This document shows, one piece after another, positions 1 through 4,516 of a stretch of 4,516 nt of DNA; positions within the stretch are counted from its first letter, which is position 1, and each line of letters begins with the position of its first letter. Under the pieces are notes generated by a model. The model saw only the letters and a program-made list of their open reading frames with translations. It made no database searches and was not told the origin of the DNA. The position numbers and the translations under genes are program-made. The DNA comes from a virus. Its lineage: Duplodnaviria; Heunggongvirae; Uroviricota; Caudoviricetes. Location: the IMG/VR virus record IMGVR_UViG_2713896791_000013. One strand, written 5' to 3'.

Positions 1-17
1 ACCTTGGTTTAAGAGAA
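1..17. promoter_or_regulatory. Partial crossover site for a serine invertase (left, cix/gix/hix-like); outer half lies beyond the window
   Basis: Bottom strand reads TTCTCTTAAACC-AA-GGT. This fits the recalled hixL (TTCTTGAAAACC AA GGT...) and gixL (TTCCTGTAAACC GA GGT...) pattern of TTC....AAACC, a 2-bp core, then GGT. The site sits at the outer boundary of the repeat, as in P1. Confidence 0.6.
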
Positions 18-681
18 CTCGGTACCAGCGGTGAAAAGATCCCCCTGTTGAGCACGGCTAACACATGGAGTGCGCGCCAGACTTTCAACGGCGGGATCAC
101 CGGGGCGCTGACAGGGAACGCCGACACCGCGACGAAATTGAAAACAGCCATAAACATTAATGGCGTCAGGTTCGATGGTTCTGGTGACATTAATATCAAT
201 ACTCTGGTATCGCGCGGTCGCGTAACGGCCTTGGAGGCGAATGCACAGGGAACATCCGGGATTCAGCTGTATGAGGCATACAACAATGGCTACCCTTCCC
301 CCTATGGCAATGTGCTTCACCTTAAAGGTGCCACCGCTGCTGGCGAAGGTGAGTTATTCATTGGCTGGAGTGGCACGAGCGGTGCCCATGCGCCCGTACA
401 TATCCGTTCGCGGCGGGATACTGATTCTGCCAACTGGTCTGAATGGGCGCAGGTCTATACGTCAAAAGATTCAATTCCCGGCGTCAATGCCAAAGGGGAT
501 CAGGATACTTCCGGCAATGCTGCTACGGCGACCAGATTGCAGACGGCGCGCACTATTAACGGTGTTTCGTTTGATGGTTCTAAAAACATTGAGCTAACGG
601 CTGAAAATTTAAATCTTGAGCAAACCGTAGAACTAGCCGCTGGATCATTGCAGAAAAACCAGAACGGCGCGGATATTCCTG
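1..681. repeat. Left inverted repeat (IR-L), 681 bp, coding for the shared part of the tail fibre
   Basis: Reverse complement of 3836..4516, checked directly at both ends. Three overlapping frames give identical mirrored ORF translations (9..320 with 4197..4508, 241..597 with 3920..4276, and the main fibre frame), which implies nucleotide identity throughout. First mismatch is at 682 (g) versus the complement of 3835 (a). Confidence 0.9.
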
Positions 682-1562
682 GAAAAGATACCTTCACTAA
701 AAATATTGGTGCATGTCGCGCTTTTCACAGTTCTATTAGTACAGGTGCAGGGAACTGGACAACGGCACAATTGATTGAATGGCTGGATTCTCAAGGGGCA
801 TTCAATCACCCATACTGGATGTGCAAATGTTCATGGTCATACGGCAATAATAAAATTATAACCGATACTGGCTGTGGAACTATTCATCTTGCAGGTTGCG
901 TTGTTGAGGTTATGGGTAATAAAGGTGCCATGACCATCCGTGTAACAACGCCAAGCACTTCCACCGGTGGCGGAACCACTAATGCGCAATTTACGTATAT
1001 AAACCACGGTGGAGATTACGCACCAGGCTGGCGGCGTGACTACAGTACCAAAAATCAGCAGCCTGCATTTGCTTTAGGGCAGACAGGAAGCACTGTTGGA
1101 AATGACAAAGCTGTTGGATGGAACTCAATTAGTGGCGTTTATAATGCGACTATTGGTGGAGCATCAACATTGATTCTTCACTTTAATATGAATGCGGGGA
1201 GTTGCCCTGCTGTTCAGTTCCGTGTGAATTATAAAAATGGCGGTATTTTTTATCGTTCAGCGCGAGATGGTTACGGATTCGAAGCTGACTGGTCAGAATT
1301 CTACACCACAACACGTAAGCCATCAGCGGGAGATGTTGGTGCATATACCAAAGCAGAATGTAATTCACGATTTATTACAGGTATTCGATTAGGTACAAAA
1401 TCGTCAGTGCAAACATGGAATGGTCCTGGTTGGAACGATAAATCTGGTTATGTTGTTACTGCCTCAATCAACTCAAATAAGGACGAACTTATTGATACAA
1501 CTCAGGCAAGACCTGTGCAGTATTGTATCAATGGCACTTGGTATAACGCGGGAAGTATTTAA
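3..1562 (+). CDS. Tail fibre protein, C-terminal portion, variant A (5'-partial). Shared region is encoded in IR-L; variant-specific receptor-binding domain from 682.
   Basis: Long ORF ending at TAA 1560..1562. The track's 'M' at 48 is a TTG codon, and the frame has no stop back to nt 3, so the gene starts upstream of the window. Contains the fibre-like repeat motif GNA.TAT.L.TA..INGV.FDGS twice. Followed 2 nt later by a chaperone gene. Confidence 0.85.
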
Positions 1563-1564
1563 TT

Positions 1565-2098
1565 ATGCAGCATTTGAAAAACATCAGATCCGGAAATCCA
1601 AAAACTGTTGAACAATATGAATTGACGCGACAATTCGGTGTTGTCTGGTTGTATTCTGAGGACGATAAAAACTGGTATGAGGAACAAAAGAACTTTCAGG
1701 ATGACACTATAAAAATTGCTTACACATCAGATGGAATTATTGTGGCTATAGATAAAGACGTATCTACAATAAATCCAGAAGGTTTAAGCGTTGTTGAGGT
1801 TGCTGACATTACTGCAAATCGCCGTGCTGACATTTCGGGTAAATGGATGTTCAAAGATGGCGTAGTGATAAAGCGAACTTATACCGAGGAGGAACAGAGG
1901 CAGCAGGCAGAGAATGAAAAACAAAGCCTGTTGCAACTTGTCAGGGATAAAACCCAGCTATGGGACTCACAGCTACGGCTGGGTATCATTTCAGACGAGA
2001 ATAAACAAAAATTAATCGAGTGGATGCTCTATGCGCAGAAAGTCGAATCTACAGACACCTCCAGCCTGCCAGTAACGTTTCCCGAACAACCAGAATGA
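1565..2098 (+). CDS. Tail fibre assembly chaperone (Mu U / P1 U / Tfa family), cognate to variant A
   Basis: 177-aa ORF with ATG at 1565, 2 nt after the fibre stop, and a GGGAAG Shine-Dalgarno-like sequence at 1550..1555. N-terminus MQHLKNI..GN.KT.EQYELT...W.YSED.KNWYEE is recognised from memory as typical of enterobacterial phage tail-fibre assembly proteins. Paralogous to the 2126..2653 ORF. Confidence 0.85.
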
Positions 2099-2101
2099 GA
2101 G

Positions 2102-2121
2102 AAGGCCCGCTATCGGGCCTT
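2102..2121. terminator. Candidate bidirectional terminator hairpin between the convergent chaperone genes
   Basis: Perfect 8-bp GC-rich stem AAGGCCCG / CGGGCCTT with 4-nt loop CTAT, in the 27-bp gap between stop codons at 2096..2098 (+) and 2126..2128 (-). Followed by AATTTT on the + strand; the U-tract is weak in both directions. Confidence 0.5.
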
Positions 2122-2125
2122 AATT

Positions 2126-2653
2126 TTACTCTGGTTTTTGTGGCCATTCTGGCTTTGCCGTATCCACGCGGCTGACCAGAACGCTGTAGCGTTCCCAGGC
2201 TTCCAGTCGTGTACGTTCCTCATCTGTTGCCATATTCAGCCTGACAGCGCGCTCCAGTGGCTGAATAACGCTTTCCGCATCGGAAAGTAACGCGGCCTTT
2301 TGTGATTCGGCCTGTTGTTGCTGTTCTTCTGCCGTATAAATCCGTTTAACCACAGCTCCGTCCTTAAACATCCACTTACCGGAATCATCGGCCCGACGAT
2401 TGGCTGTTATATCGGGGACTTCAACAACGCTAAAGCCTTCAGGATTAAGTGTGGAGGCATCTTTAGTGATGGCTACAATAATATTATTTTCATCGTAAAC
2501 AATCTTTATTGTGTCTGGCTGAAAATTCTTTACCTCTTCATACCAGTTCTTCCCGTCTTCAGAGTAAAGCCAGATAACTCCGTGCTTCTTTGTTAACTCA
2601 TACTGCTCCGGTGTTTTAGCATTACCAATTTTTATGTTCTTTAAGTGGATCAT
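2126..2653 (-). CDS. Tail fibre assembly chaperone (Mu U' / P1 U' / Tfa family), cognate to variant B
   Basis: 175-aa ORF on the minus strand, with its ATG (2651..2653) 1 nt after the variant B fibre stop (2655..2657). About 74% identical to the 1565..2098 product over the first ~123 residues (counted by hand); the last ~55 residues are divergent. Confidence 0.85.
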
Positions 2654-2654
2654 A

Positions 2655-4514
2655 TTAAACGCTCGCTACATTATACCAGGTGCCATTTATATATTTTTGA
2701 ACGGGTCTGTAATAAACGCCAGCTATATTATCGGCAGAATTGGACCCTGTATCCTGAACATTTATACCAGACAATACATGACCTGAAGGGCACTGGAAGT
2801 TCCATGTTTGCCAGTTGTTCACACCATAATATTGCTGTGAGCCAAGCCGAACATCTTTCACATATCGGGAATCAATGTTACCCCAGTTGCTTGGTTGTAT
2901 CTGACCGTTTACAGCAAATATCACCGAGTTATCTGTATTTCGCTGACTATAGAAATGCCAGCCTGAATCATCACCAAGCTCTGCAACAGTTGGTCTTGAC
3001 GAATTTCCCCACAAGTTAAATGATGCATTACGGGCAGCGGTATTTGCACTTGAAAGTGTGAAGAACTTACTTTCCCCAGCCTGAATACCCTTTAATGATC
3101 TTGCTGAACCATTTATAAAGCGGAATACATGCACACCATTAGCATAAGCATCCAGCACCCCATCACCATTTTGTTTAAACCCGGTATCGTTATCTCCTAA
3201 AACTATTGAATTTCCACCCAGGGCATTAGCCGTTCCAATCCCCAGATTTCCGCTAAAAATGGCATTAATACCGAATATTGAGTGAGAACAATAAAACCCT
3301 CGCCCATTGTTAAAATCCAGAATGGCTTGTGCGTTCGTGCTTTCTGTCGCGGGATTAGTTGCTCCCCACTTATATGTTGTTTGACCGACGGTATAATCCT
3401 GAGTTGGAACAATAACCGTTAGCCCTTCTTCAGCAGAAACCCGCACAGGAAAAGCCCTGCCTTCAACGTAAAAAACGCTGCATACATCATCTTCTTTAAG
3501 GCTTGTTACAATGGAATGGATTGCGCGCTCATTAGTCTGATACGTCGAAAAATAACCTGCCGCATATGAACCACGATCAGTCCAGCCACCAGGCATTACC
3601 ATTCCATTGAATTCGCAGTTATTCATTTCGTAATTACCACCGGCAGATGTGGTCGTTATAATCACTCTGGAAGCCAGCTCGCCAGTGCTGCCTGTGGAAC
3701 GCTGGAAAATAACTGGATACCACTTTCCACCAACAGCATTAGACGGCGCGTTAAATACGTACTGCCGCATTCCTTTTTTCTTATCCACCTCGCCTTTGCT
3801 GTAAACATTAATGTTACTCAGGAAGCGATCTTTATCAGGAATATCCGCGCCGTTCTGGTTTTTCTGCAATGATCCAGCGGCTAGTTCTACGGTTTGCTCA
3901 AGATTTAAATTTTCAGCCGTTAGCTCAATGTTTTTAGAACCATCAAACGAAACACCGTTAATAGTGCGCGCCGTCTGCAATCTGGTCGCCGTAGCAGCAT
4001 TGCCGGAAGTATCCTGATCCCCTTTGGCATTGACGCCGGGAATTGAATCTTTTGACGTATAGACCTGCGCCCATTCAGACCAGTTGGCAGAATCAGTATC
4101 CCGCCGCGAACGGATATGTACGGGCGCATGGGCACCGCTCGTGCCACTCCAGCCAATGAATAACTCACCTTCGCCAGCAGCGGTGGCACCTTTAAGGTGA
4201 AGCACATTGCCATAGGGGGAAGGGTAGCCATTGTTGTATGCCTCATACAGCTGAATCCCGGATGTTCCCTGTGCATTCGCCTCCAAGGCCGTTACGCGAC
4301 CGCGCGATACCAGAGTATTGATATTAATGTCACCAGAACCATCGAACCTGACGCCATTAATGTTTATGGCTGTTTTCAATTTCGTCGCGGTGTCGGCGTT
4401 CCCTGTCAGCGCCCCGGTGATCCCGCCGTTGAAAGTCTGGCGCGCACTCCATGTGTTAGCCGTGCTCAACAGGGGGATCTTTTCACCGCTGGTACCGAGT
4501 TCTCTTAAACCAAG
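2655..4514 (-). CDS. Tail fibre protein, C-terminal portion, variant B (5'-partial). Shared region is encoded in IR-R; variant-specific domain 2658..3835.
   Basis: Long minus-strand ORF ending at TAA (complement of 2655..2657). Identical to variant A through residue P211 of the track translation, then unrelated. Frame is open to the window edge; the track start at 4469 is TTG. Variable domain is about 100 aa longer than A. Confidence 0.85.
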
Positions 4515-4516
4515 GT
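3836..4516. repeat. Right inverted repeat (IR-R), 681 bp, mirror of IR-L
   Basis: Same evidence as IR-L; position p on the left corresponds to 4517-p on the right. Confidence 0.9.
4500..4516. promoter_or_regulatory. Partial crossover site for a serine invertase (right), inverted relative to the left site
   Basis: Top strand reads TTCTCTTAAACC-AA-GGT at 4500..4516. The core dinucleotide is AA here and TT at the left end, the inverted orientation needed for inversion rather than deletion. Confidence 0.6.

Follow-up and report, generated by a model that had tools for sequence, protein, structure and literature searches.

The classic host-range switch of bacteriophage P1, the invertible C segment, has long been known to carry inverted repeats of ~0.6 kb inside its cix recombination sites, and these repeats are directly visible in the P1 sequence. 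Its invertase, Cin, needs an enhancer and Fis. In the P1 record the cin gene is annotated immediately to the left of the C segment and the constant part of the tail-fibre protein, Sc, to its right. The G segment of phage Mu (Gin/gix) shares the switch logic, but its recombination sites lie directly at the junction of the constant and variable parts, and it has no long repeat, only short (~34 bp) inverted repeats. Outside phage switches, plastid inverted repeats and the palindrome arms of sex chromosomes are more alike within a genome than between genomes, which is attributed to gene conversion. For the arms of the C segment, a search of a limited collection of papers found none that states or tests such homogenisation.

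The stretch of DNA analysed here (the window, 4,516 nucleotides) is the complete invertible C segment of a P1-like phage-plasmid, that is, a host-range (tail-fibre) switch. Its long inverted-repeat structure is already known from P1, a point that the first-pass annotation does not make, and no new system is involved. The explanation that we hold, with good confidence, to account best for the whole is a P1-type C segment whose arms have been homogenised by episodic recombination. The analysis is of modest value, for the view of populations that it affords; that long inverted repeats should evolve in concert is expected and is ordinary biology. Unlike plastid inverted repeats and sex-chromosome palindromes, the repeat sits in a site-specific inversion switch, and the phage-plasmid that carries it is multicopy and exchanges horizontally; homogenisation there competes with the frequent import of foreign alleles. 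The features of the window are the following.

1..17 (+): cixL, inner part; 1-3 end of the outer half-site, 4-5 TT crossover core, 6-17 inner half-site GGTTTAAGAGAA
1..681 (+): arm a of the long inverted repeat; frame from base 3; homologous to the left arm of the P1 C segment
597..622 (+): position homologous to phage Mu gix (the G-segment boundary) by alignment; degenerate
682..1562 (+): Sv'-type receptor-binding tip ('cassette 1', Mu S'-like) with a gp37_C domain
1565..2098 (+): U'-type tail-fibre assembly chaperone (Pfam Caudo_TAP, E = 1.6e-35), corresponding to P1 U'
2126..2653 (-): U-type tail-fibre assembly chaperone (Pfam Caudo_TAP, E = 2.3e-37)
2655..3835 (-): alternative Sv-type tip ('cassette 3'), unlike P1's own Sv; the P1 megablast match covers 71-74% of the window
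3836..4516 (-): arm b, exact reverse complement of arm a (repeat search and base comparison)
4500..4516 (-): cixR, inner part; mirror image of 1-17

Organisation of the segment and its relatives

The C segment of P1 (NC_005856, 32221-36484) aligns with window positions 1-4516 from end to end, with ~89% nucleotide identity over the shared 71-74% of the window (megablast), and the P1 record annotates cixL, the invertible segment, Sv', U', U, the variable end of S and cixR in the aligned region. The crossover annotated in P1 at 32224/32225 corresponds to window 4/5. Base 1 of the window, at which the repeat starts, already lies inside the cix recombination site, and the window ends consist of the inner half-sites and the core; the complete 26-bp cix, in inverted orientation, are found in the nearest relative. 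The full cixL, CAATCCTAAACC TT GGTTTAAGAGAA, is identical to P1 cixL, and the full cixR of the nearest relative, TTCTCTTAAACC AA GGTATTGGATAA, to P1 cixR.

The nearest public sequences are the E. coli phage-plasmids pUTAK-19-1 and pUTAK-25-1, which differ from the window at two bases, 587 (synonymous, in arm a only) and 1799 (within U'). Searches of phages, plasmids and E. coli genomes yielded no sequence identical to the window, and the exact 50-mer around position 587 was absent from genome, viral and metagenome contigs. Cin is encoded outside the window; in these nearest relatives cixL directly adjoins the gene of a 186-aa recombinase that shares 98% identity with P1 Cin. The open reading frames of the window form two convergent sets, 3-1562(+) and 1565-2098(+) facing 2126-2653(-) and 2655-4514(-). 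Arm a encodes ~226 aa of tail-fibre protein S, the shared proximal part of its variable half, joined here to the Sv'-type tip. In the nearest relative (L002) reading continues in frame into arm b from the constant part, Sc, which lies outside the window, and one annotated tail-fibre CDS of 1097 aa joins Sc, across cixR and arm b, to the tip.

The window and its relatives therefore combine a cix pair, an adjacent Cin, convergent tip and chaperone sets, long repeats, in-frame fusion and inversion, as expected of a P1-type C segment, and share with P1 the gene order Sv'-U' / U-Sv and long arms inside cix that code for the common proximal part of Sv. The differences from P1 are of detail. One tip cassette of the window differs from P1's Sv, and the host element of the nearest relative is a D6/P1-like plasmid of another replicon type. 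The arms of the window measure 681 bp, those of P1 have a perfect run of 562 bp and end at about 617, at the gix-equivalent position, arm differences beginning at 602-618; the window arms are ~60 bp longer because its two tips share their first codons. Membership in a multiple-inversion system such as p15B Min or the shufflons, with more than two crossover sites, does not fit: the only crossover sites found in the window are the two terminal cix, and the best internal 26-mers score at most 65 of 98 against cix/gix half-sites.

Nor is the window a Mu-type G segment. Its central ~2 kb (646-2717; Sv'-type tip, U' and U) is about 81% identical to Mu, but homology to Mu is found only from position 646 inward, the repeat is 681 bp long, and the gix-equivalent (~597-622) is degenerate and internal. 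The idea that the arms are a duplicated copy of the constant part of Mu S was rejected, as BLASTP of the window ORF against Mu S gave short local motifs only; between the window arm and Mu Sc there is no homology beyond a ~25-aa motif. The inner end of the arms of P1 (L001) coincides with the position homologous to gix of Mu (L098), which suggests an ancestral Mu-type junction and P1-type sites that lie ~0.6 kb further out.

A second inverted repeat in the window (1636-1911 against 2307-2582, 276 nt at 71%) represents the paralogous U' and U genes facing each other and is, in contrast to the arms, not homogenised.

Natural inversion at cix

The segment occurs in nature in both orientations. 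pUTAK-19-1 and pUTAK-25-1 (L002 and L102) carry the same segment, with 0 differences, between identical but swapped flanks. Two further plasmids, L008 and L109, differ at 2 sites and have their flanks swapped, and all 30 sites that distinguish their arms (16 of them in the outer haplotypes X and Y, see below) travel with the segment, which places the breakpoints outside arm position 20, i.e. at cix. In L103, L104 and L106 the arms are only ~83% alike, yet the same segment (2 differences) is found in both orientations, which agrees with the first-pass annotation that the invertase needs no more than the ~26-bp sites. P7, D6 and related plasmids have the same cix, Cin and flanks, and their segments invert as units; unlike those of the window, however, their two arms are different alleles (about 85% alike in D6) or unrelated after ~150 bp (P7), so that long identity is dispensable. 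The sequences point to Cin as the probable catalyst of these inversions.

In the proposed mechanism, the Cin serine invertase would recombine the two 26-bp cix at the window ends and flip the whole 4.5 kb. In either orientation the constant 5' part of S is fused across cix, with the frame preserved, to one and the same shaft module of ~226 aa (the arm). Beyond it comes one of the two alternative tips for receptor binding, and each tip has a chaperone of its own (U or U'). The 681-bp arms would go back to an old duplication of the shaft module and would not be required by Cin.

Some relatives depart from this arrangement. The E. albertii plasmid pEA32_2 (L011, 6150-6400) has no cin beside its C segment, and its adjacent cix is altered in the outer half; it may be a natural invertase-less, frozen switch. 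Its arms are identical to about position 600 despite the missing cin. In a number of IMG/VR contigs (L045-L057, L068-L070 and L083-L086) an arm homologue with 61-94% amino acid identity follows one cix-like site, with no second site within the fetched flank; some of these contigs stop after the first cix-like site, and the others may represent fixed non-invertible fibres or differently organised switches.

Arm identity within and between genomes

A base-by-base comparison of window 1-681 with the reverse complement of 3836-4516 found 0 mismatches, just as the first-pass annotation had claimed; mismatches begin at 682, 683, 690 and 691, and the repeat continues imperfectly to 695 (695 nt at 99% in the repeat search). 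In the nearest relative it extends 7 bp further outward, again imperfectly (702 bp at 99.0%). A chance origin of a perfect inverted repeat of 681 bp is impossible. The mirrored spurious ORFs noted in the same annotation are exact mirror copies, 9..320(-) of 4197..4508(+) with 103 identical amino acids and 241..597(+) of 3920..4276(-) with 118. The arms of pUTAK-19-1 and pUTAK-25-1 are unlike each other at 587 (T/C), which shortens their perfect run to 586 bp as against 681 in the window. At 844 bp, L064 (IMGVR_UViG_651053023_000001, 6454-11201) has the longest perfect arms observed; its arm allele is ~94 sites per 450 away from that of the window, and its tip cassettes are both different.

Arms were extracted from 42 non-identical C segments, taken from P1, D6, P7, JL22, PLSDB and RefSeq plasmids and IMG/VR contigs; 38 genomes had distinct arm pairs, and the removal of duplicate haplotype pairs partly controlled for kinship. 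MAFFT and ungapped comparisons were used, a global aligner with free end gaps being meaningless for very divergent arms. Over arm positions 1-450, a genome's own two arms had at most 3 differences in 20 of the 38 genomes and none in 13, as opposed to means of 1.4 and 0.37 genomes (maxima 7 and 4) in 5000 random re-pairings. Between genomes the median arm difference is 17 sites, with allele classes 50-104 sites apart. The copies are thus more alike within than between genomes, beyond what chance pairing provides, which supports concerted evolution. The P1 reference, a Sanger-era sequence, has 0 differences between its arms in 1-562. Depending on the genome, the tip pair of cassettes 1 and 3 is accompanied by arm alleles 1/1, 7/7 or 3/3, and the occurrence of the same tips with different matched arm alleles means that the arms co-vary independently of the attached tips. 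A strict linkage of inner-arm haplotypes to tip cassettes was considered and rejected, haplotype 7 lying beside cassette 3 in L020 and beside cassette 1 in JL22 and L013.

On the evidence of about 50 related plasmid-phages, concerted evolution by recombination between the arms, and not a recent duplication, is the supported reading. The arms are identical or nearly so within most genomes and different between genomes, the outcome that the first-pass annotation had linked to concerted evolution. Its choice between 'recent duplication' and 'continuous gene conversion' comes out in favour of homogenisation, with differences within genomes far below those between them; the recent duplication falls away, and 'continuous' is too strong a word.

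We propose that homologous recombination repeatedly overwrites one arm with the other, which results in nucleotide identity and concerted evolution. RecA or a phage recombination function may carry out the exchange; it might be a gene conversion or a crossover, and might involve a single molecule or two copies that lie in opposite flip states. New arm alleles would be imported from other phages along with tip cassettes, giving rise to 'heterozygous' arms that may or may not be homogenised later. The process would work well across the outer ~450 bp and poorly close to the inner border, where the non-homologous tips begin.

Extent and possible routes of the exchange

About 20 of the 42 segments have unequal arms. 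Those of D6, L033 and L040-42 are about 85% alike, and each D6-type arm matches an allele that is homozygous elsewhere; in P7-type and cassette-6-type segments the arms are alike only over the first 130-180 bp. The first-pass annotation had regarded relatives with diverged arms as evidence against its reading, and D6, P7, L103 and the rest of these 20 or so segments are precisely such relatives, though they still invert. The diverged arms are allele replacements or mosaics, not the product of slow decay, and homogenisation is episodic, neither obligatory nor continuous. It is also polar. The ratio of differences within to differences between genomes, in 22 homogenised genomes, was about 0.15 at positions 1-100, at most 0.05 at 101-450 and 0.32-0.44 at 451-600; homogenisation is strong only over the outer ~450 bp and much less so over the inner 150 bp. 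This polarity could stem from a tract edge effect beside heterology, from imports with tip swaps, or from exchange between opposite flip states.

Individual events can be followed in a clade of near-identical segments whose outer arms come in two haplotypes, X and Y, distinguished by 16 sites from position 20 to 266, and in which 13 inner markers (473-575) are heterozygous in every member. X-cassette1 / Y-cassette3 heterozygotes occur in six assemblies and in both flip states (L008, L100, L107, L111, L109 and L110). L020, one of four plasmid records of the same length (H76-H79), and L101 are Y/Y homozygotes with a tract of at least 247 bp; compared with L008 they show 16-17 clustered sites at positions 20-359. 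L027 has a patchy tract, with X in both arms at 20-170 (heterozygous at 71 and 74) and Y in both arms at 212-266. A single tract makes up 16-17 of the about 19-25 differences per 4.5 kb in this clade, and conversion events hence occur about as often as point substitutions do in the whole segment.

The window itself may bear the trace of such an event. At position 587 it has C in both arms, a state unique among 112 loci, and its nearest relatives have T/C, their only arm difference; the chance that a random mutation would place a difference of the window at this very site is about 1.5e-4 by our calculation. The comparisons of L008 with L020/L101, of L027, and of the window with L002 at 587 all reveal discrete conversion tracts, subject to the caveat of assembly artefacts taken up below. 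The C at 587 was also considered as a derived mutation specific to the clade and rejected: the 28-mer around it reveals a widespread, old polymorphism, always in one arm only, and it is the 50-mer context that is clade-specific. No Chi site that might serve as a recombination hotspot is present anywhere in the window.

In L099 the linkage is swapped (Y-cassette1 / X-cassette3) with X still beside Sc, an arrangement that calls for an exchange between arm positions 266 and 473; a Cin flip would give a different outcome. From the sequence, L099 is an apparent candidate for a natural inversion through the long repeats without the invertase. A search for secondary (quasi-)cix inside the arms that could have caused this exchange found no convincing site. 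It is possible, if doubtful, that the arms serve more generally as an active substrate of homologous recombination, combining rare Cin-independent inversion of the central cassettes (as in L099), polar homogenisation, and landing homology for tip swaps. If the arms act in this way, inversion without Cin would leave the outer arm markers on the flanks, as seen in L099; flipping would set the arms in allelic register between co-resident copies and so bring about polar homogenisation; and the swapping of tip cassettes via the arms would occur between P1-like phages.

Homogenisation may, alternatively, proceed mainly between plasmid or phage copies in opposite flip states, with no need of intramolecular conversion. 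We view this route as a tentative option. The arms of such copies are allelic beside identical flanks, a single crossover in an arm would give X/X and Y/Y, and both flip states do coexist in nature; homogenisation is strongest near cix and weakest at the inner border, as an exchange entering from the flanks predicts. This account is at odds with the mild rise of the ratio at the outer edge (about 0.15 at positions 1-100) and with the L008-L020 tract (positions 20-359), which is internal to the arm, while the excess at the inner edge could equally arise from imports with tip swaps or from the usual edge effect of tracts.

Episodic recombination between the arms, by whichever route, has to be weighed against an origin of the identity in the assemblies. 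Lysogen cultures mix both orientations, and consensus assembly or polishing could produce chimeric or collapsed arms; a collapsed or cross-polished repeat would make the perfect identity of the window, and especially C/C at 587, unreal. Repeats of this length collapse in short-read graphs, several IMG/VR contigs break exactly at cix, and the window is alone among the 112 loci in its C/C state, with T/C in the nearest relatives and no exact copy in any collection searched. Even so, we consider an artefact unlikely: leaving site 587 aside, the relatives keep 586 + 94 bp of identity, the Sanger sequence of P1 has the same long identical arms, and the 30 heterozygous arm sites have been kept, in consistent linkage, in six independent assemblies, an indication that heterozygosity is usually retained. 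The caveat weakens single records, namely L099, L027 and the C/C of the window at 587; it leaves the overall pattern, the P1 reference and the X-cassette1 linkage in six assemblies unweakened.

Purifying selection, on the same shaft module or on an embedded nucleotide signal, is a very improbable substitute for recombination. Each arm is indeed translated as part of S in one or the other orientation, and differences between genomes bear the mark of moderate purifying selection. However, many of these differences are synonymous (28 synonymous against 23 non-synonymous among 51 changed codons between the window and L010, 49 against 22 among 71 between the window and L064), with none within the genome, and the isolated phages D6 and P7, complete deposited genomes, have arms that are 15% to over 50% diverged, so that identity is not required. 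A recent duplication of the 681-bp module in this lineage, compatible as it is with perfect identity taken alone, deserves next to no credence, because the cix-arm...arm-cix layout is common to P1, D6, JL22 and dozens of plasmids, the arms of relatives are 1-20% away from those of the window while each genome's pair matches, an arm difference is already present in the nearest relatives, and independent duplications with identical boundaries in each lineage are not credible.

What is worth keeping, beyond the expected concerted evolution, is the evidence for conversion tracts, the candidate for Cin-independent inversion and the polarity. Heterozygous arms are natural markers that tell cix flips from homologous exchange inside the arms; they indicate that conversion keeps the outer ~450 bp uniform and that switching does not need long identity. 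In practice, this bears on the engineering of P1 tail fibres and the movement of tip cassettes between phages, as well as on the assembly and annotation of P1-like phage-plasmids, in which one commonly meets collapsed arms, mirrored spurious ORFs and truncated 'tail fiber' CDSs. In L006, L007, L010, L012, L016 and L017, the tail-fibre genes, whether active or silent, frequently appear as truncated or split 'phage tail protein' CDSs, or lack a CDS, probably as a result of start-codon guessing in the promoterless copy and of frameshifts in some assemblies (L006 is 14 bp shorter).

C segments also contain additional genes and insertions. In phage JL22 (L005, 5189-5665), as well as in L055, an extra gene annotated as a serine acetyltransferase (sacF) lies between the two chaperone and tip sets; the C segment of JL22 measures 5450 bp, and cargo can thus travel within the invertible segment. 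IS elements are found within the C segments of some P1-like plasmids of E. albertii and E. coli, namely ISEc52 (H57/H58) and ISVsa5 (H100).
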